The notes: a model not told the origin generated them from the letters alone. A DNA stretch of 33,469 nt from Chloroflexota bacterium (GCA_023415845.1 JAEZJB010000079.1:1-33469); one strand, 5' to 3'. Numbered from the stretch's first letter, positions 6,215 through 33,469 are shown. Program-made: numbers and translations.

Positions 6215-7684
6215 ATGTTGCGTCGGGTGGGTCTCGTCGTTCTGTCGCTGTTCCTGTTGGGGCCATCGCTGCTGGTTTGGTCCGGAGACCTGCATCCTGC
6301 CAACGTGCATGCCCAGCAAGCGACCACGGCCACGACGACCGATCGACTCAATCTGCGTTCTGGCCCCGCCCTCTCCTATTCGGTAAGTGCAGTGATTCCC
6401 CTTGGTGCCACCGTGACTCTCGGCGGCCAGGAGAATAACGGCTTTCGCAGTGTCACCTGGAACGGGCAGACAGGCTGGGCATTTTCGACGTATCTCTCGC
6501 TGAACCAACCGGCCCCCAGTCCGAATATCACGGCGACGACCACCGATCGACTCAACCTCCGCGCCGGGCCAGGCACGTCCCACGGAGTAATCACCGTGCT
6601 CGAGCGCGGTGCCATCGTGACGCTCACGGGCCAGAGCTCCAACGGGTTCCGGAGCGTGACGTTCGGGTCGTTCAGCGGATGGGTTTCGTCCGACTACCTC
6701 AATCTCTCCTCGACGCCTCCGCCGCCAGTCACCCCACCCACGCCTCTTGCGATCACGACCGACAATGTGAACCTCCGGTCAGGTCCAGGCCTCATCTTCA
6801 GCGTCATCCGCGTCGTGCCTGTCCGCACCGAAGTCACGTTGACGGGTGAAACCAGCAACGGGTTTCACGCTGTTTCCGTCTCGGGAGTCGCCGGCTGGAT
6901 CTCCTCTGAGTATCTGACCCAGGAGGGCACCGAGCCACAGCCGACCGGTTCCGCCACGACCACCGATCGGCTCAACCTGCGATCGGCTCCCAACACCACG
7001 GCCTCGGTCCTGGCCGTCATCCCGAGCGGCGCGAGGATTTCCCTCACCGGCCAGGCAACCAACGGCTTCCGCTCTGCTACCTACGGCAACCTGACCGGCT
7101 GGGCATTCGAGTCCTACCTCAGCATTGGCTCCACCACGCCGCCCGCTCCCGCTGCGCCTTTCACGGTCACCAATACCCTCATTGGCCCTGCTCGGGGCTC
7201 GGCAAACCAGGTGCTCGCGTTGGCCCGCACGATGGGTGCCCAGCGGATGGACCAGGTGACGCTGTACGTCACCGAGATATACCGCCGCGCTCCCGAAGTC
7301 GGCTTCGACCCTGCATTACTGATTGCGCAGTCCGCCCTGGAGACCGATTTCTGGCGTAGCTACTGGTGGATCAATCGCCTCAATCCGGCTGGTATCGGTG
7401 TGACCGGAGATCCCGGCCAGAATGCCGCCAGTCCCACCTTCACCTCCGGCACGATTGCGGCACGCGCCCAGATCGCGCACATGCACGCCGAGGTCTACGG
7501 AAATCGGCAGCCGTTGCCCCTTGTGTTCCAGGGCGTTGACCCAACCTATCAGCGTGTCTTCGCGGCAGGCTGGGCTGGCACCATCGTGACGCTTGAGGAT
7601 CTCGCCGGAACCTGGGCGACAGATCCGCTTTACGCTGTCAAGATCGTCAGTCGGGCGCGGGTGGTCTTCCCCGATATTTCCTGA
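6215..7684 (+). CDS. Secreted cell-wall hydrolase: signal peptide, four SH3b domains, C-terminal glucosaminidase-like (LytD/FlgJ-type) domain
   Basis: N-terminal hydrophobic signal (LVVLSLFLLGPSLLVW). There are four ~70-aa modules, each starting (T)TTDRLNLR(S/A)GP (the third diverged to ITTDNVNLRSGP) and ending GW(A/V/I)(F/S)S.YL. The C-terminus LIAQSALETDFWRSYWWINRLNPAGIG resembles the AQ.ALESGWG core of glucosaminidase domains. Confidence 0.8.
   Translation: MLRRVGLVVLSLFLLGPSLLVWSGDLHPANVHAQQATTATTTDRLNLRSGPALSYSVSAVIPLGATVTLGGQENNGFRSVTWNGQTGWAFSTYLSLNQPAPSPNITATTTDRLNLRAGPGTSHGVITVLERGAIVTLTGQSSNGFRSVTFGSFSGWVSSDYLNLSSTPPPPVTPPTPLAITTDNVNLRSGPGLIFSVIRVVPVRTEVTLTGETSNGFHAVSVSGVAGWISSEYLTQEGTEPQPTGSATTTDRLNLRSAPNTTASVLAVIPSGARISLTGQATNGFRSATYGNLTGWAFESYLSIGSTTPPAPAAPFTVTNTLIGPARGSANQVLALARTMGAQRMDQVTLYVTEIYRRAPEVGFDPALLIAQSALETDFWRSYWWINRLNPAGIGVTGDPGQNAASPTFTSGTIAARAQIAHMHAEVYGNRQPLPLVFQGVDPTYQRVFAAGWAGTIVTLEDLAGTWATDPLYAVKIVSRARVVFPDIS
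6320..7126 (+). repeat. Four tandem SH3b-encoding modules (period ~204-216 nt) inside the hydrolase gene
   Basis: The DNA/protein motif ACGACCACCGATCG(A/G)CTCAAC(C/T)T / TTTDRLNLR recurs at about residues 39, 108 and 248, and a diverged third module (ITTDNVNLR, GCGATCACGACCGACAATGTGAACCTC) sits at about residue 180. Confidence 0.8.
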
Positions 7685-7717: not shown

Positions 7718-8890
7718 TCAGGCGGCGGGCGTGCGCAGGCGATCGCGGCTGGTGCTTGCCGCTGGCGCAGCTACTGGCAGGCGCACTTCGATCGCCGTGC
7801 CCTCACCAGGTACCGACTCGGCGCGCAGGTCGCCATTCAGCAACCGAACGAGACTCTGGACGATACTCAGACCCAGGCCCGCGCCGCCCTTCGCGCCAAT
7901 ATCCTCGCCCTGGTAATACCGATCGAAGACGCGAGCCAGTGTCTCGGGTGTCATCCCTTCGCCGGTGTCACGCACGGTCATCGACAACCATGGGGAATCG
8001 GCCGGACTCGATACTTCGACCATCACCAGTCCTCCGGCCGGGGTATGCCGAATCGCGTTGTGAATCAGGTTGCCTGCGATCTGGGAGATCCGCGTCGCAT
8101 CGCCCATCGCAAGGGTGTTTCCCGGCAGTACATTTGCGTGCACGCTGACCTTGCCGGTCTGCAGGGCATAGGGTCTCACCCGTTCGACTGCCTCGGTCAC
8201 GATCTGGGCGACGTCGACCGGCACCATGGTGACCGGCAGGACGCCCTCTTCGATGCGCGACGACGTGAACAGGTCCTCGATCAGGCGGGACAGGGTCACA
8301 AGTTCCTGGTCAATCGCCGCAAATGACTCTGCCGGTGGCAGACTCGCACCAGGACTGGCGTCCAGCTGCATATCCAGATGTCCGCGGATGACGGCAATCG
8401 GAGTCCGGAGATCGTGCGAGATATTGGCGACGAAGGCCTTGCGTTGGCGATCGGCCTTGTCCAGCGACGATGTCAGCGCGTTGAAGGTCGATGCAAACTC
8501 ACCCAGCTCGTCGTCAGTAATCGTCCGCACCTGGGTGGTGTAATCGCCACCGGTTACCGCCCCCACTCCGCGTCGAAGCTCTTCGATCTGCCGCAGGATC
8601 GGGCCCGAGACAACCCGGCTCGTAATCCTCGCCACCACCACGCCGCAGAGCGTGATCAGTCCGATCTGAACCAGCACGAACACGGTGATCCCGGCAAACT
8701 GCGGGACCAGCAACGGCAGGTCTGCGATCCGGTACCCAGCCCAAACCACAAGCAGGAATACGAGGAGGAAGAAACCGCCAACCGCGTAGACGAAGGTACT
8801 GGCAACCACGGCGACCAGATGCGAGGTGACGAGCCGCCTGCGGATCGACGCCCCCAGGAAGCGCGAGGGAGGCCGCTGGGCAGTGTTCAC
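7718..8890 (-). CDS. Two-component sensor histidine kinase (2 TM, HAMP, HisKA, HATPase_c)
   Basis: GTG start. H-box FVANISHDLRTPIAVIRG, N-box LIHNAIRHTP, G-boxes RDTGEGM and GAGLGLSIV. Its start overlaps the upstream regulator by 4 bp (GTGA). Confidence 0.9.
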   Translation of the reverse strand: MNTAQRPPSRFLGASIRRRLVTSHLVAVVASTFVYAVGGFFLLVFLLVVWAGYRIADLPLLVPQFAGITVFVLVQIGLITLCGVVVARITSRVVSGPILRQIEELRRGVGAVTGGDYTTQVRTITDDELGEFASTFNALTSSLDKADRQRKAFVANISHDLRTPIAVIRGHLDMQLDASPGASLPPAESFAAIDQELVTLSRLIEDLFTSSRIEEGVLPVTMVPVDVAQIVTEAVERVRPYALQTGKVSVHANVLPGNTLAMGDATRISQIAGNLIHNAIRHTPAGGLVMVEVSSPADSPWLSMTVRDTGEGMTPETLARVFDRYYQGEDIGAKGGAGLGLSIVQSLVRLLNGDLRAESVPGEGTAIEVRLPVAAPAASTSRDRLRTPAA

Positions 8891-9585
8891 GTTCGGCTCC
8901 GCAGGGAATACCGGTAGCCCACACCCCAGACCGTCTCGATGGATTGCCCGCCAGGACCGAGCTTCTTTCGCAACCGCTGGATGTGGCTGTCTACCGTTCG
9001 GTCGAAGACTACCGATTCATCGCCCCAGACCTCTTCGAGGAGGAACTCGCGGCTGAAGACCCGGCCCGGATTCGCCGCAAGGAGTCGCAGCAACGAAAAC
9101 TCCGTCGCGGTGAGGGTGACCTCCTGACCATCGACCGCGACCGTGTGCGCGCTGACGTCAACGGTCAGTCCCGGATGCGAAATAATCTCAACCGCCTGCT
9201 CGGTAGAGGAAAACTGGCGGATGCGTTCGGCCCGCCGAAGGATGGCTCCGACTCTCGCCTGCAGTTCGCGCATCGAGAATGGCTTCGTCAGGTAGTCGTC
9301 GGCACCGAGTTCCAACCCGAGCACCTTGTCGAGTTCGGTTGAGCGCGCCGTCAGCATCAGGATGGGAACCGACGACACCTGCCGCACGCGCCGCAGCACC
9401 TCGATACCATCGAATCCCGGCAGCATCACGTCCAGCAGGATGATGTCCGGATCGACCCGGGCCGCTAGTTCCACTGCCTGGGGACCATCGCCTGCCAGCG
9501 AGACGGTGTGTCCCGCAGCCTCCATCTCCCGCGTCACCAGCGAGGCCAACTCTGCCTCGTCTTCAACTACCAGTACGTGCGCCAC
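8887..9585 (-). CDS. OmpR/PhoB-family response regulator
   Basis: Receiver domain (VLVVEDE..., DIILLDVMLPGFDG, LMLTAR, KPF) plus a winged-helix C-terminus (LTATEFSLLRLLAANPGRVFSRE...VWGVGYR). GTG start with AGGAGA upstream. Confidence 0.9.
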   Translation of the reverse strand: MAHVLVVEDEAELASLVTREMEAAGHTVSLAGDGPQAVELAARVDPDIILLDVMLPGFDGIEVLRRVRQVSSVPILMLTARSTELDKVLGLELGADDYLTKPFSMRELQARVGAILRRAERIRQFSSTEQAVEIISHPGLTVDVSAHTVAVDGQEVTLTATEFSLLRLLAANPGRVFSREFLLEEVWGDESVVFDRTVDSHIQRLRKKLGPGGQSIETVWGVGYRYSLRSRT

Positions 9586-9626: not shown

Positions 9627-9788
9627 CTACGCGGCATCCGGAACGTCAATCGCCTTTCCGCCCTCGATCACGCGAAGCTGAGGAGGAGTTGCTGCTGGAG
9701 CCGATTCCTCCAGCAGGAGCGGGGCGAACGCGAGTACCGCAAACACGATCACCACGAGACCAATAATTCCTGAAAGTACCAGACTCAT
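9627..9788 (-). CDS. Unlisted 53-aa single-TM small protein upstream of the two-component operon
   Basis: My manual translation gives MSLVLSGIIGLVVIVFAVLAFAPLLLEESAPAATPPQLRVIEGGKAIDVPDAA*. GAAAGGA lies 10 nt upstream of the ATG. The ORF ends 41 nt before the response-regulator start on the same strand. At 53 aa it is shorter than every ORF in the track, which lists nothing below 60 aa. Confidence 0.4.
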   Translation of the reverse strand: MSLVLSGIIGLVVIVFAVLAFAPLLLEESAPAATPPQLRVIEGGKAIDVPDAA

Positions 9789-9942
9789 TCCAGTGTGTCC
9801 TTTCGCAACCAGCGCGCAGCGTCCGTCGATCCGCTCCGGTCACGCTCATCTGGAATCAGTCTGGCGACACGATGTTACACAGCACCGGGAAGCTGATGGC
9901 AATCGCGTGAAAAAGTATGGAGAAATTGTGGCGACGCCTGGC

Positions 9943-11337
9943 TCAGGGCAACAACCCGCCCAGCGAGGTCACCTCTTCCCGAATCTCGTCGGGCATCGTC
10001 ACCAGGCGCATCAGGCTGGTCTGGTCAAGAAATTCGCCCGATACCCAGCCGCTTTGACCCTCCACGCGCACTGGCCACCAGGTGATCCCCTCACTTTCGG
10101 TCGGCAATCCCGTGATCGACACCTCATTCCTCGCGCTCAGCGTGGTCCGGATCGGCGCATCCGTCGATGGATTCTCCCGCAGGTTGAGTCCATCGGAAAT
10201 CACTTTGCTTTGTGTCCACGGCAGAGTGTCGATCGCCAGTTCCATCAACCCATTCGAGACGACGGGCACGTTCAGCAGCAGGATCGCTGCCAAGACGGCG
10301 AGGGGGATCATCAATCGACGAGATAATCGCAGGGGCAATGTTGCGCACCACCTTATTAGCCACACGAATACTCTTCCAAACCACCGCATGATGGAGTCGA
10401 AAGCGCCCGGTCCGACCGCTTTCGCCGGAGGCTCGACAGGCGTCCGCCGAGGCGGAACCGGCGACACGACCACAGTCTGACTTCGGCGGCGTCGCCCCTG
10501 GCCCCGATCGATGGCGTCCAGCATCGCCCCCGCCGAAGCGAAGCGATGGTCGGGCTCCTTGGCCAGCGCCCGGTCGAGCACATCGTCGGCCCAGGGCGGA
10601 AGCTCGCTGCGGAACGTCGATGGCGGGGGCGCATCATCATAGCGGTGAGCGTCCAGCAGGTATGCGTGCTCCGCCTCCCCTGTCAGCCCTTCAGCGACAA
10701 ACGGAGGTCTGCCGGTAAGCATTTCGAACAGCACACAACCAAGGGCATAAACATCCGTTCTCGCATCCACCGGCAGCTGGTCGATTTGCTCGGGCGCAAT
10801 GTACGCAGCCGTTCCCAGCCGATCGATTTGCCGGTCGGCGAACTCGTGGGCGAGACCCAGATCGATCAACTTCACACGATTCCGCGTGGTAATCATGATG
10901 TTCTGGGGTTTGACATCGAGATGCACGATCTGGAACTGATGCAAATGATCGAGGCCTGCCACCGCTCCCCGTGTTAGTCGAATCGCCTCTGCCACGGACA
11001 GCGGAGATCGCTCGGCGAGCAAGAGTTTCAGGTTGTTTCCGTCCACGTATTCGAGGAAAAGCCACCCTTCGGTGTCAGCGATCGAGCGCACCACATTGGA
11101 GTGGTCCGCGATCGAGCTCATCCGTTGCTCGCGCTCGAACCTTCGGATCGCCTCCGGGTCATTGGCGAGTTCAGGCCGGAGGCGCTTGGCGGCAATTGGG
11201 TCACCGGACACGAGGTCACGCCCGGCGTAGACGAGCGAGATCCCGCCAGCACCCAGGGGTTCATCGAGCCGCACCTCGAATCGGTCCTCGATCAGGAGTG
11301 GAGTCGCTATTGGTTGGGCAACGGTCGTCTTGGCCAT
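9943..11337 (-). CDS. Hanks-type Ser/Thr protein kinase with one TM and an extracellular SH3b domain
   Basis: LGAGGISLVYAG, IAAKRL, HLDVKPQNIMI, DLGLA, GTAAYIAPEQ; TM MIPLAVLAAILLLNVPVV; C-terminal ISDGLNLRENPSTDAPI...GWVSGEFL. The start is ambiguous: ATG at 11337 (MAKTTV) or the listed 11430. Confidence 0.85.
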   Translation of the reverse strand: MAKTTVAQPIATPLLIEDRFEVRLDEPLGAGGISLVYAGRDLVSGDPIAAKRLRPELANDPEAIRRFEREQRMSSIADHSNVVRSIADTEGWLFLEYVDGNNLKLLLAERSPLSVAEAIRLTRGAVAGLDHLHQFQIVHLDVKPQNIMITTRNRVKLIDLGLAHEFADRQIDRLGTAAYIAPEQIDQLPVDARTDVYALGCVLFEMLTGRPPFVAEGLTGEAEHAYLLDAHRYDDAPPPSTFRSELPPWADDVLDRALAKEPDHRFASAGAMLDAIDRGQGRRRRSQTVVVSPVPPRRTPVEPPAKAVGPGAFDSIMRWFGRVFVWLIRWCATLPLRLSRRLMIPLAVLAAILLLNVPVVSNGLMELAIDTLPWTQSKVISDGLNLRENPSTDAPIRTTLSARNEVSITGLPTESEGITWWPVRVEGQSGWVSGEFLDQTSLMRLVTMPDEIREEVTSLGGLLP

Positions 11338-11529
11338 TGATCGGTCCGGGGATTCCCTGAATGCCACACGGCGCTCGCTGCCTTCGCGGTCGCTCGTATG
11401 TTCTGTTCGTACTCTAGCAGAGTCGCCCACCGCGACCGGGAAGCGCTGTCACCCACCTCCAGCGTCACGCCGATCGTCACGAATGCTGGTCAGCATTACT
11501 ACAGGTGCGGATCTTCTCCCGCTTGTGCG

Positions 11530-13867: not shown

Positions 13868-16159
13868 CTACGACCTTGCCCGGCGGCGATTACGCCGAGC
13901 CTCTTCTACCCGAGACTGCTCATCATCAGTCAACAGGGCAGCTGCCCGATGCGGATCGGGATCGACTGCGGCGAGAATGGCAATGTCGTTGTCGCGAGCA
14001 AGGGCGGCTCGAATGCGGCGCAGGTGGGCAAACCGCACCACCTGCGTCTCCATCTCATTCACGCGTTCCGGGCCACCAAGTCGGGGATCCTGCTCCAGTC
14101 CAAGGGCTCGAATGGTCGGAAGCAAGTGCGCCAGGCGTGCATGGTCTGGTGGCTGGGCGTCAGCCGCAGCGATGAGGTCCTCGATCACCGAAACTCGCTC
14201 AACCACCTGCTGGATACGGTCCCACAACGATCGGTCCTCGATCCTCGCGCCAATCCGCTCAACCGCATTCAGCGCCGAAATCACCGCTCCGTCATCGTTG
14301 CTGTCCAGCGCAGCGGTGAGCACGTCGAGCGCCTTTCGCCCCTCGATCGAGCGGAGCATTCGCCGCCGTTCACCAGCGCTCAAACGTTCGATCGCCCCGT
14401 AGGGCGGGTCGATCAGGAGTTCGCTGAGCCGATCCGGGTTTCTCCGTTTGAGCGCAGCCCGTGCCTCGCTCAGCCAGGCGATCCGCTCGCGCGCCAACTG
14501 GACCCGATCGAACAGGTCGAGCAGTTCCGGGTCCCCTTCATCAAACAACTCGGCGTCCCACGCCTCCAGGATCAGGCGATCGTCGTCGGTCTCGAATGCG
14601 CGGCGTAACGCGGGCTTCTCAAGTGATTGAAGCACCGTGCGCAACGTGGCTCGATCCGTGTCGCCAAGCACCACCAGCCTCCCCGAGACGGCGAGGTCCG
14701 CCAATGCATGTTCGTCGTTCGCTGCCAACGCCGCTTCCAGGGCCGACTTTACTTCCAGACGCTCCTGCGCTGTGCGAGCCAGCGCCCGGGCCTGTCCCGT
14801 CATCGGGACGAGACGTTGTTCCCATTCGTCGCCGATCGCGACAACCCCGGCGTCTCGACCGGCCTCTGCCTCGGCCTGGAGACGTCGCTGGTATCCGGCG
14901 GCGATCAAGTCCTCCACATCGGCCCGCAGCAGCATCGCACGCGGATCATCAGCCAGTTCCGACCAGAGGCGAATGACTTCGGCTTCGTTCCCCTCTTCCA
15001 ACGCTAACTGGAGCTCGCTGATGTGGTGACTGGGATCAGCCGGCCGAATGGGTTCAGGAGGCACCTCCACCGGACGCCACATCCGATCCCACAAGTCGTC
15101 GGTTGCGTTTTGAGCAGGCGTTGACGGGGCCACGGCAGGCGACGTCCATGACGTTGTCACCTCATCCTCTGCTGGCGCTCCCCAGGCAGTCTGCGGCTTC
15201 CCCCAGGTCGAGAATGTTTGCGGCTGGGTCAGTGCTGAAGGGACGCGGAGGTTCGGCACGACGTGCAGGGCATCGACCAACTCGGATCGGCCGCCGGTGA
15301 GAGCTGCTTCAAGCCCGTCCAGCAAACGTTGAGTCAACGGTCGGGCGTGATGACGGGCTTCGGCCAGGGCCAGCGACCGATGCGGATCCTGCAGGTCATA
15401 CGCACTGAACAGCAACGTTCCGTCGGGCCGATGCGGCGCGTCGCCGAAGCGCGCCCTCAATCCGGGATTGTCGGCAATCGCACGCAGCGAAGCCTGCATC
15501 ACCAGCATCGCGAAGCTGTCTCGCTCGATGGCATCTTCTTCGAACTGCTTCACCGTGTATCCGGCATGTCCGCCGGGACCAGGCCCGAATGGAGCCCCGG
15601 TCCAGGTTGCGCTGTCGAGATCCACCAGCACGACCTGGCCATCGGTGCGCACCATCACGTTCTGAGCGGTCAGATCACCGTGAATAAACCCGATCGGTTC
15701 CAGATCGTTCCACATCTGAACCAGACCAGTCGCGAGGGCGCCGATCACATCGGCATTGCCAGCCCGTGCGGCGCGATCGATCGCGCTCAGCAACGTCGGC
15801 CCACCAATCCATTCCATGAGCTGGGCGGCCCGCGCGCTCGGCACGAGATCCCGGATCGGTCCCGAGGTCGCCGACAGCCGGCGGATGCCGAGAGGCAGTC
15901 TCCGCACACCCTCCACGACCTGCATCGACGCTATGGCACTGTAACGTACACTCCAGTCGCCAGCCTCCGGGCCGGATGCTAGGATACGAAGTGCAACAGT
16001 CCGCCCATTGTGTTGTTTCATCTGGGCGACGAGTGCATTGCTCCCCGCAACCACCCGTGCGCGACCCGCTGAGTCCCGTACCGGAGTAAGGCCCAACGCC
16101 TCCAGCGCAGGCACACGTGGTTGTTCCAGAACGTTCTGCAGGTCAGCGAGTGTACGCAT
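13868..16159 (-). CDS. Atypical protein-kinase-like (PKL) fold protein fused to a Pro/Trp-rich linker and ~7 degenerate helical repeats
   Basis: Catalytic-loop-like FIHGDLTAQNVMV (res 158-170) and LVDLDSA (res 178-184). The hinge-like segment is LMEWIGGPTL. No TM is evident. The C-terminal ~400 aa carries repeated L..AL...(N/D)D...I(L)...W/V modules. Confidence 0.7.
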   Translation of the reverse strand: MRTLADLQNVLEQPRVPALEALGLTPVRDSAGRARVVAGSNALVAQMKQHNGRTVALRILASGPEAGDWSVRYSAIASMQVVEGVRRLPLGIRRLSATSGPIRDLVPSARAAQLMEWIGGPTLLSAIDRAARAGNADVIGALATGLVQMWNDLEPIGFIHGDLTAQNVMVRTDGQVVLVDLDSATWTGAPFGPGPGGHAGYTVKQFEEDAIERDSFAMLVMQASLRAIADNPGLRARFGDAPHRPDGTLLFSAYDLQDPHRSLALAEARHHARPLTQRLLDGLEAALTGGRSELVDALHVVPNLRVPSALTQPQTFSTWGKPQTAWGAPAEDEVTTSWTSPAVAPSTPAQNATDDLWDRMWRPVEVPPEPIRPADPSHHISELQLALEEGNEAEVIRLWSELADDPRAMLLRADVEDLIAAGYQRRLQAEAEAGRDAGVVAIGDEWEQRLVPMTGQARALARTAQERLEVKSALEAALAANDEHALADLAVSGRLVVLGDTDRATLRTVLQSLEKPALRRAFETDDDRLILEAWDAELFDEGDPELLDLFDRVQLARERIAWLSEARAALKRRNPDRLSELLIDPPYGAIERLSAGERRRMLRSIEGRKALDVLTAALDSNDDGAVISALNAVERIGARIEDRSLWDRIQQVVERVSVIEDLIAAADAQPPDHARLAHLLPTIRALGLEQDPRLGGPERVNEMETQVVRFAHLRRIRAALARDNDIAILAAVDPDPHRAAALLTDDEQSRVEEARRNRRRARS

Positions 16160-16301
16160 CTTTCGTCTGATCCTCTCGCTGCCAACCTGGGCTGGCTGGC
16201 AAACGTAACGGCGTTATCTCCCCATCCGTTCGAACGATTGTAGTCACACGCTTCGAACCGGGAGCTACCCAGGCCGGAACCAGTCGAAAGGGAAGAAACC
16301 C

Positions 16302-17993
16302 TTGCGCCGACGCAACAACTCCGAGTTCGACGCCTCGGACACCGTCACCTCTCCCCACCTCGCCAACGGCTCGTCGCGCCGAAGCGACAGCGATGTCACA
16401 TACGGCAGCATCTGGACAACTCCGTCCACTGTGGCGGCCGAGGTTCGTGGCATTGCCGAGGCGCTTTCATCAGTCGATGACCGCGCCTCGTCTCGCCTCC
16501 GGGATCTTGGAAATGCCCTCGACTCGGACGATGGGCGCTCGCGGTGGTCCGATGTGGACCTGCGCCGTGCCTTCAACACCGATCGCCTTTCCCACATGTA
16601 TGCCGTCGAAGCCGAAGGCGGCTACGCTCCCCGCCGGATCGAGGTTGCGGACAAGATCCGGAACGTGCTGGTGCTTGTGCCGATCCTGCTCACATGGGCA
16701 GCTCTCGCCGAAGCCGCGCGCGCCTACGATCGCTTTCTCGAGCAGAACCCCGAAGAACAGGGAACGCCCTTCCTCCTGCTCTGGCAGCGGGGGTTTGGTG
16801 GCGAAGCCAGCTGGTTCTCGCCCACCTTCTCGACCGTGGCCATCATCGATGCCGTCGTGATCGCCGCCATGATCCTCCTCACGTTCTACACCCATGGCCG
16901 TCGCGAGGAACAGGAAGACCTGATCGCCGACACGGCCGCGACCTTCCAAACCGAGTTCGACAACGTCATGGCCGAAGCCGGCGTGATTCTTGCAGCCGAT
17001 CGCGCCAACCGCCCGAACCAGATCGCGACGAGTGTCGAACGCATGGCTGATCGCTTTGATCGCGGCAGCCAGGAGCTCCTGACCCAGTTGCAGGTCGAAC
17101 ACGATCGGCTCGAACATCTGGCTGCTCGCCGCGAACGGGAATTCGCCGACTTCGGCAAGTTCGCCACCGGCATGCGGGCCGGCGCCGAAGAGATGCATCG
17201 CCTGCTGGTCGATCTGCGCCAGGTCTCGAGCAGCCTCGAAACCGCGCTTCAGGACCTGGCGAGTGATGTCGCGGCCTCCGGTGACCAGCAGCGATCGTTG
17301 CTTACTGCCGTGACGAGTCTCGAGCGGATGACCTCGTCGGCCATCCAGAGCGACCAGGCCGTCAATCGGCAACTCTCCCAGGCTGCGCGTAACCTGGCCG
17401 AAACCGCCGACAAGGCGCTCGTTGGCGCCGATCAGGCCGCCCAGGCCGGTCGCGTTGCTGGTGAGGCCGTTCGTGGCCTGGCGGAAATCGCCCAGCAAAT
17501 CGCTGACAGCCAGGAACGAGTCGACCGCCTCGTCATGGGCGATGTCGAAGCGACCCGCCGCCTGTCGGATGCACTGCTCAGCAATTCGGCGATGACCGAA
17601 TCCTCAACCCGCGCGCTGGGCGAGATCGGCTCCGGCTTCACCATGATCCGCAGCGAGCTGGAACGGCTCGGCGCCCAGACCGGCGAGCACGCCAACGCCC
17701 TTTCGGCTCTCCTCGCCCAGCAAACCGAGATTGCCAGGGATATCTCTGCCGTGTCGCGTGAGCTCGGCTCCGTCGGCATGACGACGGTCCAGCGGCAGCG
17801 CGAAGCAACTCAGGACCTGCAGCATCTCGTCCAGCGACTTGATAACCTTGCGACCACGATGAATCGAGTGCTGCAGAATGCGCCAACGGTCGAGAACCTC
17901 CAGAAGGCGTTCTCCGGCGCGCTCCGGGCCGAACTCGGCCAGCGGGACGGCACTTCCACGCCTCCCGTGCGCCAGGGCCCCTGGTCGCGATAA
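16302..17993 (+). CDS. Hypothetical 2-TM membrane protein with ~360-aa C-terminal helical (coiled-coil-like) tail
   Basis: TTG start with AAAGGGAAG upstream. Hydrophobic helices lie at about res 120-138 and 174-196 (the second contains IIDAVVI). The remainder is an A/L/Q/R/E-rich helical sequence with no enzymatic motif that I recognise. Confidence 0.7.
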   Translation: MRRRNNSEFDASDTVTSPHLANGSSRRSDSDVTYGSIWTTPSTVAAEVRGIAEALSSVDDRASSRLRDLGNALDSDDGRSRWSDVDLRRAFNTDRLSHMYAVEAEGGYAPRRIEVADKIRNVLVLVPILLTWAALAEAARAYDRFLEQNPEEQGTPFLLLWQRGFGGEASWFSPTFSTVAIIDAVVIAAMILLTFYTHGRREEQEDLIADTAATFQTEFDNVMAEAGVILAADRANRPNQIATSVERMADRFDRGSQELLTQLQVEHDRLEHLAARREREFADFGKFATGMRAGAEEMHRLLVDLRQVSSSLETALQDLASDVAASGDQQRSLLTAVTSLERMTSSAIQSDQAVNRQLSQAARNLAETADKALVGADQAAQAGRVAGEAVRGLAEIAQQIADSQERVDRLVMGDVEATRRLSDALLSNSAMTESSTRALGEIGSGFTMIRSELERLGAQTGEHANALSALLAQQTEIARDISAVSRELGSVGMTTVQRQREATQDLQHLVQRLDNLATTMNRVLQNAPTVENLQKAFSGALRAELGQRDGTSTPPVRQGPWSR

Positions 17994-18066
17994 TCGCTGG
18001 CCCCGACACGCCTCGAGCAGGCAGCCCGGCTGATCCGTCTCGCCGCCATCGCGTCGAAAGGTGACG

Positions 18067-19194
18067 ATGCAACCCTACAAGCGCCGTAAACGAACCCGAC
18101 GAGACATGTTCGTCCTCGGTGGCTGGCTCTTCGCTGACTTGCTGCTCGGGCTGGCCATGCTCTTCGCCGTCGCCAACACCGTGGGGCAGGCACCACCGAC
18201 GCCCACGCCGACCGCCACCCCGAACGAACTGGCGACCGCCGAATTCCAGCTGGCGATGGAGCAGGAAGCGAACCAGCAGACCGTCGAGGCGTTGCAGGGC
18301 CAGATCGACGAATCAGCCGTCTCGGCCCAACAAACACAGCAGGCAGCGGAAGATCTCTTCGCCGCCGCCACCCAGGCCGCCGCTGACAACGCCACCCGGG
18401 AGGCGATGACGGTCGACGAGCGGGCCACTGCCGATGCGCTGGCCACCCAGGAAGCATCGGCCGCTCAGGCAACGATCGCGGCCCTTGGCACCGAACAGTC
18501 AAGCTCCCAACAGGATGCCGCCACGCTGAACAACCAGTTGGCCACCAACGTCGCCCAGGCCACACAGGCCGCCCTCGATCTTCAGGCAGCTTCGACCGAG
18601 CAGGCAGCCGTTGCCCAGGTCGCCACCGAGAACGCCGCCTCCGGTGCCAACACCCAGGCCACATCGGAAGCCGCCCAAGCGGCGCTCGCAAACGCGCAGG
18701 CCACCACCGACGCCTCCAGCCAGCAGGTTGCCAATGCACAGGCGACCACGGACGCGGCGAATCAGGAACTCGCCAACGCCCAGGCGACGGCCGCCGCCGC
18801 CCAGCAACAGGTGCAACTCAATTCTCTCGGCCCCAATCCCGTGGTCGAAGTCATCCAGGTCGATCTGAATGGAGTGCTTGCTGGCGACAGTGACGCCATC
18901 GCGGACGCCGAGGCAGAACTCGATCGAGTGCTGGGCAAATACGTCAATGGTGACTCCTGTCGCATCGGCTTTGTCAACATTTCCTCCCGCGCGGCCGACA
19001 TCGGGCAGGGCGTACTGCTCTCGAGTACGATCGCGGAAATCGTGCAGGACCAGTTCCCCGAGCTGCTGCCAGAACCAGCCGACGGTTCGGCACCAGTTCT
19101 GACGAGTAATCCCATTGCCTATCCCAACACGACACCGGTCGGCGAGGTTGAATTGCAGCTCTTCCTTAGCGCCGGCTGCGAGCCGTCGGGATAG
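18067..19194 (+). CDS. Hypothetical single-TM protein with a MotB/ZorB-like N-terminus, a Q/A/T-rich extended spacer and a C-terminal globular domain
   Basis: ATG at 18067 with GAAAGG 7 nt upstream (the track lists GTG at 18061). MQPYKRRKRTRRDMFVLGGWLFADLLLGLAMLFAVA, then PPTPTPTATP, ~230 aa of Q/A/T-rich sequence, and a C-terminal ~110-aa domain ending GEVELQLFLSAGC. Confidence 0.7.
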   Translation: MQPYKRRKRTRRDMFVLGGWLFADLLLGLAMLFAVANTVGQAPPTPTPTATPNELATAEFQLAMEQEANQQTVEALQGQIDESAVSAQQTQQAAEDLFAAATQAAADNATREAMTVDERATADALATQEASAAQATIAALGTEQSSSQQDAATLNNQLATNVAQATQAALDLQAASTEQAAVAQVATENAASGANTQATSEAAQAALANAQATTDASSQQVANAQATTDAANQELANAQATAAAAQQQVQLNSLGPNPVVEVIQVDLNGVLAGDSDAIADAEAELDRVLGKYVNGDSCRIGFVNISSRAADIGQGVLLSSTIAEIVQDQFPELLPEPADGSAPVLTSNPIAYPNTTPVGEVELQLFLSAGCEPSG

Positions 19195-29551: not shown

Positions 29552-29733
29552 CCGGATCGCGTTCGCCCTCCCTGCACAGATGTGCAAATGGGCGATGTGC
29601 TGGCGTGATTTCGCCTGCTCGTTGCGTACGAGATGTACCGGACGAATTCCGGGGCAGATCGAGCCGATGGAGAGGTCACGGCTTCGCGCCCGGTTGCACT
29701 TCAGCCGCCCAGCCGAAAGGAACCAGTGAAACG

Positions 29734-30603
29734 ATGCAGCACCTCAATCTGATCTCGAAAGAAGACATGCAGCGCGCGGCTCTGCTGGCCAGGGAGTTTC
29801 TCACTACCCAACAGAATCCTCTCGGCCTCGCCCTGATCGACCACCTGGTCGCCGATGGACCAGCCTCAGACGTGGTGACAGCCCTCGCGGCCTACCAGAA
29901 TGAGGACGGCGGGTTTGGTCGGGGACTCGAAGTGGACATCGCAGCTCCCGCCAGCAATCCTTTCGCGACTCGCCTGGCCATGCAGGTTCTCTTGCTGCTA
30001 CCTGCCGAGGCACGAACGCCGATGCTTCCGTCGCTCCAGGCCTGGCTGGAAGCGAATCAGGCGCCCGACGGCGACTGGCACCTCTCGGCCGCGACCCGAT
30101 CCGGCGATCTTGCCCCCTGGTTCGCCGCCTGGCAGCATCCTGCCCTCAATCCAGCATGTTGCGTGACCGGACTGGCCAATCGGCTTGGCATCGCCACTAC
30201 GTCAATGCTCGAGCGGACCGCTTCGCTTTTCTCGGCCAGGGCAACAATCGAGCAGGTGGCGCAGGGCACCTTCTACGATCTCCTTCCCTATGCCGAATAC
30301 CTGACCGCCATCCAGGATATCGAGAACCGGGATGCATGGCTGGACACATTCGCCGAGCGGATCCGCGCGGCGTCCACTGAGATCTACGCCGACGCCGGAC
30401 ATTTTTGGGAGCAGGTGCTCGCCCTCGGTGGACCGATCATCGAACGCCTGCCGTCAGAGCTGCTGGCTTCAAATGCCACCCACCTGATGGACGAACAGGA
30501 GGCGGACGGGAGTTGGCCGTCGCCATATTCACCAGCCTGGCAGCCATGGATCACATCCATGGCCATCGCCACCCTTTACCAACTCGCTCCGGCCGCCCGC
30601 TGA
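29734..30603 (+). CDS. Small alpha/alpha-toroid (prenyltransferase / squalene-cyclase-like repeat) protein
   Basis: I chose the internal ATG at 29734, which has GAAAGGA upstream. It carries repeated Q..DG(G/D/S)(F/W) motifs (YQNEDGGFG, NQAPDGDWH, EQEADGSWP) spaced as in terpenoid-cyclase/prenyltransferase repeats. Confidence 0.55.
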   Translation: MQHLNLISKEDMQRAALLAREFLTTQQNPLGLALIDHLVADGPASDVVTALAAYQNEDGGFGRGLEVDIAAPASNPFATRLAMQVLLLLPAEARTPMLPSLQAWLEANQAPDGDWHLSAATRSGDLAPWFAAWQHPALNPACCVTGLANRLGIATTSMLERTASLFSARATIEQVAQGTFYDLLPYAEYLTAIQDIENRDAWLDTFAERIRAASTEIYADAGHFWEQVLALGGPIIERLPSELLASNATHLMDEQEADGSWPSPYSPAWQPWITSMAIATLYQLAPAAR

Positions 30604-32369: not shown

Positions 32370-32575
32370 ACCAACAAAGAGTACCGGCTCTCAGGGGCCT
32401 ACACGCGCACAACCAGAGAAAGCACGGAAAAGTGTGACTCTGGCGGAAGCTTATGTTAGCCGGTTACGTTTCTCGGCTGGTACCATGAGCCCTGAACAGG
32501 GGCAACGACGTACGGGCCACTGGGGAATCTTCGTCAGGCTCTGCAACGGTCATCCACAAGGAAGGTGCACAGGTA

Positions 32576-33469
32576 ATGGCTGGAATCTCTCGCTTTGACG
32601 CCCGCCTCAATCGACGTCGTTTGCTCGCCGCCACCGGCGGCGCGGCAGTGGGCTTGTCGCTGCTCGGCAGGACGTTCGAAGTCTCGGCGCAGGACACCAT
32701 TGTCGCCACGCTTGTCACCGACACGGCTGGTATCGGTGATCAAAACTTCAACGACCTTGCCAATGCTGGTGGCGAGCGCGCTGCTGAAGAACTCGGCATC
32801 GAATGGAAGGTGCTGGAAAGCTCGACGGCCGCCGACTACGAAACCAACCTCACGCTGGCCGTTGAGCAAGGCGATATCGCCGTTCCCAACGGCTTCCTCC
32901 TCGAGGATGCAGTCAACGTCGTCGCTCCACAATTCCCCGACAAGTACTTTGTCTTCATCGACGCGGTCGCCGAACACGAAAACGTCCAGAACTATCTCTT
33001 CAAGGAGAATGAGGGCGCGTTCCTCGCCGGCATCCTGGCCGGTCTCGTCACCGAGACCAACAAGGTCGGCATGGTCGGTGGCATCCGGGTCCCGCCGGTG
33101 ATGCGCTATGAAGTCGGCTTCGCCGCAGGCGTTATGACCACCAATCCGGATGCGGTCTTCACCGCCTCCTACGCCGATGACTTCGAGGATCCTGCCCTTG
33201 GCAAGGACCTGTCGCTTGCGCTCTACAACAACGGCCACGACATCGTCCTCTCTGCCGCTGGCCGAACTGGTACCGGCGTGTTCGACGCCGCGGTTGAACT
33301 TGGTCCCGGCAACTGGGTAATCGCCGCCGACACCGATCAGGCCCACCTTGGCCCCGAGAACCAGCTCGCCTACGTCAAGAAGGGCGTCGACGAAGCCGTG
33401 TTCAAGGGCATCCAGCACGTTGTCGACGGCGACTTCGTCGGCGGAATCTTCGACCTCGGCCTTGCTGAT
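32576..33469 (+). CDS. BMP-family (PnrA/Med-like, nucleoside-type) ABC substrate-binding protein with Tat signal; 3'-truncated by the window edge
   Basis: This ORF is absent from the track because it has no stop codon inside the window. ATG at 32576 follows AAGGAAGG. My manual translation gives MAGISRFDARLNRRRLLAATGGAAVGLSLLG...TDTAGIGDQNFNDLA...YLFKENEGAFLAGILAG...KVGMVGGIRVPPVMRYEVGFAAG...AADTDQ, open for 298 codons to the window end. Confidence 0.85.
   Translation, partial: MAGISRFDARLNRRRLLAATGGAAVGLSLLGRTFEVSAQDTIVATLVTDTAGIGDQNFNDLANAGGERAAEELGIEWKVLESSTAADYETNLTLAVEQGDIAVPNGFLLEDAVNVVAPQFPDKYFVFIDAVAEHENVQNYLFKENEGAFLAGILAGLVTETNKVGMVGGIRVPPVMRYEVGFAAGVMTTNPDAVFTASYADDFEDPALGKDLSLALYNNGHDIVLSAAGRTGTGVFDAAVELGPGNWVIAADTDQAHLGPENQLAYVKKGVDEAVFKGIQHVVDGDFVGGIFDLGLAD

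Follow-up and report, generated by a model that had tools for sequence, protein, structure and literature searches.

A stretch of 33,469 nucleotides from a Chloroflexota bacterium (GCA_023415845.1, JAEZJB010000079.1:1-33469), analysed here at its full length and referred to as the window, contains two neighbouring genes, named A and B, which are an obligate conserved gene pair across Chloroflexota and which, judged by sequence, belong to no described family. The pair shows the generic gene architecture of the 5:2 ion-driven motors, in that a gene of the A type is immediately followed by a gene of the B type that codes for a bitopic protein with cytoplasmic N-terminus and a conserved acidic residue in its transmembrane (TM) helix. 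By analogy with the MotAB, ExbBD, TolQR, GldLM and ZorAB systems, A and B are tentatively read as an ion-coupled, probably proton-coupled, stator-like trans-envelope complex that would work together with the product of the divergently oriented gene K; the probability of this reading is put at somewhat less than even.

Due to the fact that 455 homologues of A and 182 homologues of B were found at E ≤ 1e-3 (268 of B in another search), both are considered real genes and not chance open reading frames (ORFs). A profile of the A core (residues 45-300) was compared with 1.84 billion representative proteins and matched at least 1031 clusters at 50% identity with E ≤ 1e-3 and 518 with E ≤ 1e-10; no Pfam domain was present on the A core among the cluster members scanned. 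Among the relatives the taxon names Thermomicrobiales, Sphaerobacteraceae, Candidatus Chloroploca and 'Chloroflexi bacterium UTCFX4' were found, and distant relatives were mostly without a taxon name. In Thermomicrobiales the order is K (divergent), A, B, with B present in 76 and K in 75 of 80 loci. Where B is missing (four loci), the contig ends there each time; K is missing from five loci, four of them again at a contig end, and in the fifth (L073) the approximately 700 bases upstream of A had no K match. In distant loci B is located directly downstream of A in seven of eight cases, and the same holds for all 13 metagenome loci that reach past A. The TM of the distant B protein in Candidatus Chloroploca (L081) reads SGWLYADLLLGLAMLFFVFNTVG, and the same B TM motif was found downstream of A in the metagenome contigs L083, L084, L086, L087, L092 and L093. 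The gap between A and B is 4-14 nt in most distant loci, and that between tolQ and tolR of E. coli is 3 nt. Moreover, high-GC soil metagenome contigs contain a minimal subfamily (L103-L111), in which A has approximately 290 aa and no long tail, B has approximately 150-177 aa and carries AGWLWADLLLGLF, and the gap is 3 nt. The original prediction, which had described the pair as a possible ion-powered or signal-transmitting envelope machine, would have been undermined by A and B occurring separately in other genomes; the adjacency is kept in nearly all of the loci named above.

Two side observations concern the family at large. One A homologue (L085 8001-10355) is a TPR-A fusion of 784 aa without an adjoining B and lies beside genes for a P-loop protein, an Mrr_cat nuclease, a radical-SAM protein and a HATPase_c_3 protein, which is the only island-like context seen in the family. 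Additionally, orthologues of A are listed in databases as 'methyl-accepting chemotaxis protein', 'predicted nucleic acid-binding Zn-ribbon protein', 'chromosome segregation ATPase', 'archaellum component FlaC' and 'SbcCD ATPase subunit', names that look like misannotations driven by the coiled coil.

The positions of all features are given in Table 1. The structure of A was predicted as a single chain with AlphaFold2 using 30 orthologues (mean predicted local distance difference test score, pLDDT, 66). In this model the N-terminal domain consists of helices at residues 41-55, 60-73, 76-82, 87-91 and 93-105 (pLDDT approximately 88). By hydropathy the two hydrophobic helices comprise residues 119-137 and 175-193, and of 139 relatives 103 likewise have two TMs. 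Both TMs of A are bordered by basic residues on their N- and C-terminal sides, and therefore both termini of A are assigned to the cytoplasm. Conservation is concentrated in and around the membrane. In TM1, R120-N121, P127 and T131-W132 are invariant in 18 diverse sequences, with R120 at the membrane boundary, and in the loop F157 and F165 are invariant in 139 family representatives and W161 in the 18 diverse sequences. Asp183 of TM2 (nt 16848-16850), located inside the motif IIDAVVI, is invariant in Thermomicrobiales and kept in about 90-95% of the 139 representatives.

From TM2 onwards the AlphaFold2 model gives an unbroken helix from residue 176 to residue 344, followed by further long helices to residue 546. 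The alignment-averaged hydrophobicity of residues 197-546 has one coherent heptad period of 3.50-3.52 residues (power 317 versus a mean of 9), and the tail is a genuine heptad coiled coil with a length of approximately 50 nm if extended. Its first approximately 100 aa (through ERxRLxxLAxRREKEFxDF) are part of the conserved core and the length of the remainder depends on the lineage, so that tails of about 100 to more than 500 residues occur across the family. The soluble N-terminus, the two hydrophobic helices, the Asp within IIDAVVI and the long helical tail had all been described beforehand and were recovered at the same positions by ORF analysis, hydropathy and AlphaFold2. An extra C-terminal TM ends 19 of the 139 A relatives (e.g. 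L081 6001-7503 and L083 8001-9761), and in these proteins the coiled coil would need to fold back to the membrane.

Because the orthologues of B all begin with MQPYKR, the start of B was set to the ATG at position 18067; mechanical ORF finding placed it two codons earlier, at GTG 18061. The ATG lies 73 nt past the stop of A and is preceded at a distance of 2 nt by the Shine-Dalgarno sequence AGGTGA. The basic N-terminal stretch KRRKRTRRD is followed by the TM FVLGGWLFADLLLGLAMLFAVANTV, in which Asp24 (nt 18136-18138) is located about one third of the way from the cytoplasmic side. Both the motif GW-x-x-ADLLLG and Asp24 are invariant in the 120 orthologues listed. In the wider B family GW-x-x-ADLL is present in 54 of 56 members, with the Asp at median position 24, the other two being one sequence with LWLADLLLG and one fragment; all 55 full-length members carry the TM Asp. 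The basic stretch, the TM Asp, the PT linker and the separate Shine-Dalgarno sequence agree with the original prediction, in which a lack of conservation of the Asp had been named as a reason to abandon the motor-like reading.

The A/Q/T-rich stalk of B, although present as described before, measures 198 aa and not approximately 230 aa. Ala accounts for 32% of it, Gln for 17% and Thr for 11%, and Pro and Lys are absent; no heptad signal was detected in it, and no repeat array was detected in its DNA by Tandem Repeats Finder. Other members of the family have, in place of this stalk, only a short PT linker, long PTPYPTYTPG repeats or SpaA-type Ig-like domains. The B gene of L083 (about 9760-10693) has been called as an ORF of 106 aa, and the true ORF begins right after A; its TM and its end domain are separated by PTPYPTYTPG-type repeats over approximately 190 aa.

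For the C-terminal approximately 125 aa of B, AlphaFold2 gave a beta-alpha-beta-alpha-beta-beta fold with a pLDDT of 90.3 and a predicted template modelling score (pTM) of 0.83. Foldseek found no match of this domain to the PDB at E ≤ 1e-3. Weak matches (E 0.006-0.07, TM-scores 0.3-0.5) were obtained to Rid/YjgF proteins, chorismate mutases, PurM N-domains and OmpA-like domains, the latter being SiiA (6qvp), YfiB, OmpA (4erh) and MotB (3s0y) with E=0.009-0.07 and TM-scores of 0.34-0.43, mixed with other domains of the same topology. These folds presumably form one topology class, SCOP fold d.79. The weak matches of the model suggest that the end domain of B has a fold of the kind used by OmpA-like peptidoglycan-binding domains. 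OmpA-like domains have a conserved Asp/Arg in the motif NxxLSxxRAxxV. Helix 2 of the window B has the sequence LSSTIAEIV, that of distant B proteins LSREVNxLL, with Ile or Val at the position of the Arg. Since no OmpA profile was matched and the Arg is replaced, membership of the end domain in the OmpA-like superfamily is not established. As a separate observation, Cys298 (18958-18960) and Cys371 (19177-19179) are invariant in Thermomicrobiales and absent from distant B proteins; in this lineage the two may be joined by a disulfide outside the cytoplasm.

Gene K is transcribed divergently from A and joins an N-terminal kinase-like domain, which has weak matches to APH, RIO and Bud32, with a C-terminal repeat domain, termed R. 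The usual position of the beta3 Lys is occupied by an invariant Ala-Leu-Arg; H160, N167 and D182 are invariant and D162 is conserved in approximately 60%. K may be a pseudokinase or an unusual phosphotransferase. The R domain contains at least six repeats of approximately 45 aa with the form ALxxxD(D/E)xxI and matched no Pfam family. In other Chloroflexota the R repeats occur as stand-alone proteins of 239-428 aa encoded just upstream of A, and in L093 the repeats share one protein with a kinase-like domain, which is the arrangement of K. As the R repeats exist as separate proteins, the conserved unit therefore comprises a repeat protein, A and B, with the kinase-like domain either fused or separate. 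The proposed link to the divergent kinase-fold gene was supported: K accompanies A and B in 75 of 80 Thermomicrobiales loci, and in distant loci they are accompanied by K-like genes or by separate genes for the repeat half.

Possible further partners are suggested by gene context. A Ser/Thr kinase gene is found within roughly 3-6 kb upstream of A in approximately 30 of the 43 loci with enough upstream DNA, and in L087 a gene with Pkinase and SH3_3 domains flanks the R-A-B module. Genes for vWA, Tubulin_2 (FtsZ-like-1), Tricorn/PD40-like and protein-kinase domains surround the modules of L081, L087 and L093, and the module of L093 additionally abuts PBP2-MreD-MreC-MreB. The minimal pairs of L110 and L111, the two contigs with scanned neighbours, are located inside a polysaccharide cluster with Bac_transf, RmlD and Wzy_C. 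The neighbours named in this paragraph all belong to envelope biology and none to defence; the single island-like locus, L085, is without B. Operons of FtsZ-like-1 (FtsZl1), vWA and protein-kinase (PK) genes have been predicted as membrane-remodelling machinery with the uncharacterised membrane families B1-B9 (Makarova and Koonin 2010, PMC2875224). In the supplement of that study B1-B9 are given by locus tag only, and A and B are not described there (PMC2875224).

Table 1. Positions of the A-B pair, its parts, gene K and associated genes in the window and, where an L number is given, in other loci
Feature	Position	Strand	Basis or remark
Gene A, 563 aa, TTG start, 2-TM membrane protein with long coiled-coil tail	16302..17993	+	ORF; homologues
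A, N-terminal cytoplasmic helical domain, residues 41-105	16422..16616	+	AlphaFold2; conserved across family
A, TM1 helix, residues 111-148	16632..16745	+	AlphaFold2; conserved motif RNVLVLxPIxxTW
A, short extracytoplasmic loop, motif PFLLLWQxGF (most conserved of the family)	16746..16826	+	alignments
A, TM2, residues 176-198, with Asp183 in outer half; helix runs on into cytoplasm	16827..16895	+	AlphaFold2
A, cytoplasmic coiled-coil tail, residues 199-546	16896..17939	+	heptad period
Gene B, 375 aa, bitopic N-in/C-out protein	18067..19194	+	ORF; homologues
B, basic N-terminus (residues 1-14) and TM (residues 15-39) with Asp24, motif GW[LV][FYW]ADLLLG	18067..18183	+	alignments
B, PT linker (residues 40-52) and A/Q/T-rich stalk (residues 53-250), lineage-specific extracytoplasmic spacer	18184..18816	+	composition
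B, C-terminal alpha/beta domain with Cys298 and Cys371	18817..19191	+	AlphaFold2; conserved in distant B proteins
Gene K, 763 aa, divergent: atypical kinase-like domain (nt 15260-16159), variable linker, R domain (nt 13871-15034)	13868..16159	-	
K-A divergent intergenic region, 142 bp	16160..16301		sequence
Canonical Ser/Thr kinase with C-terminal SH3_3, possibly associated	9943..11430	-	Pkinase E=4.8e-44 and SH3_3
Wall hydrolase, 4xSH3_3 and glucosaminidase	6215-7684	+	
Stand-alone R proteins	L081 5088-5975; L083 6626-7912; L086 1924-2820; L087 7242-7961; L094-L102		upstream of A
vWA/Tubulin_2/Tricorn/kinase neighbours	L081 1-5045; L087 1-7013 and 12733-18238; L093 679-6216 and 14129-15224		
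Minimal pair, example	L111: A 7839-8711, B 8715-9245		

The reading of A and B as a stator-like complex is argued for by several observations. The order A then B is obligate, as it is in motAB, exbBD, tolQR, gldLM and zorAB, and in both proteins the membrane segments are the most conserved parts. A has the same layout as the core of the known A subunits: a domain in the cytoplasm precedes a TM hairpin whose outer loop is short, the last TM contains an acid, and the protein extends C-terminally into the cytoplasm. B combines a variable spacer with a conserved end domain, the modelled topology of which is also used by OmpA-like peptidoglycan-binding domains, and such domains are among its weak Foldseek matches. 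The sizes of the minimal version are similar to those of ExbB and ExbD. Moreover, the numbering of Asp24 in B resembles that of D25 in ExbD, D23 in TolR and D26 in ZorB (PMC11946911). When the profile of the N-terminus and TM of B was compared with 177,635 distinct PDB sequences, the top match was E. coli ExbD, with Asp24 placed on Asp25 in register and equally far from the N-terminus; at E=1.2 this match is a lead and no proof. Of seven E. coli stator proteins, ExbD and TolR alone had positive scores. The presence of two TMs in A is no obstacle to the stator-like reading, because GldL also has two TM helices with an essential acid in the second.

If this reading is correct, A and B would assemble in the cytoplasmic membrane into a stoichiometric complex linking the cell wall to the cytoplasm. 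B would serve as the axle, with its N-terminus in the cytoplasm; its single TM would hold the protonatable Asp24 within the inner bilayer half, and its spacer of lineage-specific length would set the small alpha/beta domain on the wall or an outer envelope layer, where it may bind. Several copies of A would surround the TM of B by their TM1-loop-TM2 hairpins, which bear Pro127, Thr131 and, in the outer half, Asp183. The data show the pairing of the genes, the features of topology, the conserved residues, the fold of the B end domain and the association with K or its repeat half; the contact between A and B, their stoichiometry, the ion flow and the rotation are predicted here by analogy with the known motors. 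Through its continuation into a coiled coil of approximately 50 nm (if extended), TM2 of A would carry a movement or a conformational change into the cytoplasm. The likely cytoplasmic target and receiver is the kinase-like/repeat protein K, and in other Chloroflexota the receivers could be stand-alone repeat proteins, Ser/Thr kinases and vWA/FtsZ-like-1 proteins. A bolder proposition is that the pair constitutes a new, sequence-independent class of ion-driven 5:2-type rotary motors native to Chloroflexota, in which a rotor subunit with two TMs and a coiled coil of up to approximately 50 nm would pass wall-anchored, proton-powered movement to kinase-like, repeat and FtsZ-like-1/vWA partners; in this full form the proposition is judged rather unlikely.

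Searches against known families were performed with both proteins. Pfam, NCBIfam, PADLOC and PHROG contained no family that A or B matched above threshold, and only compositional coiled-coil matches were obtained. Pfam MotA_ExbB (PF01618) matched neither A nor any of 30 orthologues, in line with the earlier remark that A lacks a MotA/ExbB motif, and the A profile gave negative scores against E. coli MotA, ExbB and TolQ. With the full-length B profile nothing relevant was found in the PDB. For the full-length A model Foldseek returned nothing below E=0.1, the ExbB, MCP (methyl-accepting chemotaxis protein), Tc-toxin and F-BAR chains at higher values being long-helix noise. No publication describing the A-B pair was found.

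Several of the results weigh against the stator-like reading. By sequence, there is no statistically significant homology to any stator family. The A core profile retrieved nothing relevant from the PDB, which includes MotA, ExbB, TolQ and ZorA structures, and Pfam MotB_plug, ExbD and OmpA (PF00691) had no match in 30 B orthologues even at E ≤ 10. Foldseek, the use of which had been suggested together with the original prediction, gave no significant match (E ≤ 1e-3) for either the A or the B model. The match of B to ExbD is at chance level and aligns one TM with another, and the PADLOC ZorA1 match on A (E=1.4e-4) covers only the tail residues 390-544 and not the TM domain. The tail of A is heptad-based, whereas that of ZorA is described as a right-handed supercoil, and the terminal TM in approximately 14% of the A relatives suggests a hairpin tail that leads back to the membrane and not a free pentameric tube. 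In the end domain of B the OmpA-type Arg of LSxxRA is Ile or Val according to the alignments. Finally, a buried Asp can serve only for TM-TM assembly. Neither sequence nor fold connects A to MotA, ExbB, TolQ, ZorA or GldL, or B to MotB, ExbD, TolR or OmpA, at a significant level. The motor or signal machine inferred at the outset is thus supported in part, by the pairing of the genes, the conservation of both TM Asp residues and the association with K; homology to the known motors and, for this locus, a role in defence are not supported.

The main competing reading, only slightly less probable than the stator-like one, is a passive trans-envelope scaffold or signalling complex that is not ion-driven, and the absence of stator homology and the ordinary heptad coiled coil of the A tail fit to it. 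In such a complex the part of B would be to sense the wall or a polymer of the surface, or to anchor there; the TM acids would only glue the helices of A and B together, and the coiled coil of A would be a docking platform for K, Ser/Thr kinases and FtsZ-like-1/vWA proteins. The task of the whole would be to organise the synthesis of wall or polysaccharides, or signalling under envelope stress. Envelope or signalling functions are typical of all the accompanying genes (K, Ser/Thr kinases, the SH3_3 glucosaminidase, Tubulin_2, vWA/Tricorn, PBP2-MreD-MreC-MreB and Bac_transf/RmlD/Wzy_C), and the predicted membrane-remodelling role of the FtsZl1/vWA/PK operons with their uncharacterised membrane families (PMC2875224) points in the same direction. 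However, a passive scaffold leaves unexplained why conservation over a large phylogenetic distance is strongest in the TMs, whose two acids lie at different depths of the membrane, and why tail and stalk vary freely or are absent. A conserved basic partner residue inside the bilayer, with which the acids could be paired, is missing, R120 being located at the membrane boundary, and neither the order A then B nor the tight coupling nor the stator-like sizes are predicted by a scaffold.

A role in defence had been named as a possibility in the original prediction. A Zorya-like anti-phage module, in which the kinase-like protein would act as effector or sensor, is very improbable. It would be in keeping with the weak PADLOC matches, namely ZorA1 on the tail of A and the STK_OB, MkoA and PD-T4-6 kinases on K, and with the TPR-fused A homologue of L085 next to a P-loop protein and an Mrr_cat nuclease. 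However, Thermomicrobiales carry the module as a single copy, in conserved synteny with housekeeping genes and by vertical inheritance, and it is not a defence island. The base composition of the window is even (GC 0.59-0.66), and the closest relatives of the window proteins come from Thermomicrobiales/Sphaerobacteraceae metagenome-assembled genomes. No nuclease or other effector gene is adjacent, ZorC and ZorD are absent, the ZorA match leaves out the TM domain, and the island-like L085 has no B. PHROG gave no match, nor did a tblastn search of the A core against 72,556 plasmids. For this locus the defence role was therefore rejected on the grounds of vertical inheritance, housekeeping synteny and the lack of effectors and of PHROG or plasmid matches.

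That A is a divergent MCP and B an unrelated protein is scarcely credible. Pfam MCPsignal matched A with E=5.6e-4, the A profile matched the T. maritima MCP 2ch7 with E=1.1e-7, and several orthologues are so named in JGI and NCBI. However, the Pfam match scores 20.2 bits and stays below the gathering cut-off of 34.6 bits, only one of 30 orthologues matches the family, and the confident MCP homology that would have spoken against the original prediction did not appear. De novo designed coiled coils score alike (8qae, 2.3e-7), and 25 bits are due to composition bias. The invariant hairpin-tip motif of MCPs falls on the least conserved stretch of A, and a tip of the type EEAARAGExGRGFAVVA is absent, as are a HAMP domain and nearby che genes; in the short subfamily the tail itself is missing. 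The MCP identity of A was rejected on the sub-threshold score, the parity with designed coils and the misalignment of the tip.

Type IV pilins with a class III signal peptide have the consensus G-[FYLIVM]-[ST]-[LT]-[LIVP]-E (PROSITE PS00409), and the idea that B is a pilin-like protein, suggested by eye by RRDMFVLGG|WLFAD with the Asp at +5 after Gly, was rejected on motif and context as hardly tenable, given that G-W-L-F-A-D is judged to fail the consensus at every position after Gly, that the TM leads into a PT linker and not into the further course of a pilin helix, that no pilus genes are nearby and that the partner is A.

The remainder of the window contains ordinary chromosomal genes, namely those for NadA, a two-component system, sugar ABC transport, thioredoxin, TsaB, an AIR-synthase-related protein and a helicase. 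A promoter scan found no sigma-70 consensus in the intergenic region between K and A, and the annotation of the neighbourhood gave no che genes, no pilus genes and no type IX secretion (GldK/N) context near A and B. Two more ORFs of the window, with 332 aa (29605-30603, plus strand) and 294 aa (32534-33418, minus strand), had no Pfam match at E ≤ 1e-5.

To our knowledge, only a handful of 5:2 ion-driven motor families exist, namely MotAB/PomAB, ExbBD, TolQR, AglRQS, GldLM and ZorAB, and each of them opened a field (flagella, Ton/Tol transport, gliding, type IX secretion and phage defence). In its architecture the A-B pair has the hallmarks of such a motor, and it occurs in Chloroflexota, whose envelope is atypical and whose gliding motility is unexplained. 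It represents a large family, with at least 1031 clusters at 50% identity for the A core, which is covered by no Pfam or other model and is partly misannotated as "chemotaxis protein". If the bolder proposition of a new motor class were true, the motor would be a candidate power source for processes of this phylum without a known motor, e.g. the gliding of Chloroflexus and Herpetosiphon or the remodelling of wall and polysaccharides. The minimal pair is small (about 290 + 175 aa). Even if A and B were no motor, they would be a conserved wall-to-cytoplasm complex tied to kinase-like, Ser/Thr kinase, FtsZ-like-1/vWA and polysaccharide/elongasome loci, and as such an unrecognised piece of Chloroflexota envelope biology.

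Among the known systems, the operons of FtsZl1, vWA and kinase genes resemble the present one by context, as the R-A-B modules of Chloroploca L081, of L087 and of L093 lie amid vWA, Tubulin_2, Tricorn-like and kinase genes; unlike these, the window has no FtsZl1 or vWA gene within its 33 kb. MotA, ExbB, TolQ and ZorA have three or four TMs, in contrast to the two of A and of most of its relatives. ZorA, which in type I Zorya forms a 5:2 complex with ZorB, has a coiled-coil tail of 70 nm that is needed for signalling, and the TM Asp of ZorB is D26 (PMC11946911). A differs from ZorA, which has three TMs and belongs to the MotA/ExbB family, and ZorC and ZorD are absent here. The likeness lies in a long cytoplasmic coiled-coil tail that directly continues the last TM of the A subunit, in a B subunit with a TM Asp and an extracytoplasmic anchoring domain, and in the proposed transmission to soluble partners, to which the ZorA tail is thought to signal (PMC11946911).

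GldL/GldM (PorL/PorM) is a proton-driven 5:2 motor that powers gliding and type IX secretion in Bacteroidota. It differs from A and B in that no sequence similarity exists (PDB profile searches including 6YS8 found nothing), that A possesses an additional domain at its N-terminus and its coiled coil is far longer, and that the host is a member of Chloroflexota without a type IX secretion context. Furthermore, the TM of GldM carries Arg, whereas that of B carries Asp. GldL has two TM helices, is mostly cytoplasmic and has a strictly conserved essential Glu49 in the second TM helix, and ten GldL TM helices wrap two of GldM (PMC8986121, PMC9389320). GldLM itself has no obvious sequence homology to MotAB (PMC8986121, PMC9389320). 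Shared with GldL/GldM are the A subunit with two TM helices, an acid in the second and a cytoplasmic C-terminal extension, the bitopic B subunit with a large extracytoplasmic part, and the adjacency of the genes in the order A then B.

Compared with ExbB/ExbD and TolQ/TolR, A has no MotA_ExbB domain and one TM fewer, the end domain of B is not detectably ExbD-like or OmpA-like, and partners such as TonB, TolA or Pal are absent. The segment GIAEALLATAIG is the last TM of ExbB, and it contains the acid E176, to which the acid in the last TM of A is the counterpart in the comparison. Among PDB sequences the TM of B aligns best with ExbD (E=1.2), and D23 of TolR aligns as well. The short A/B subfamily is similar in size to these systems and shares their tight gene coupling, and the Pro-rich or helical spacers of B recall TonB and TolA.

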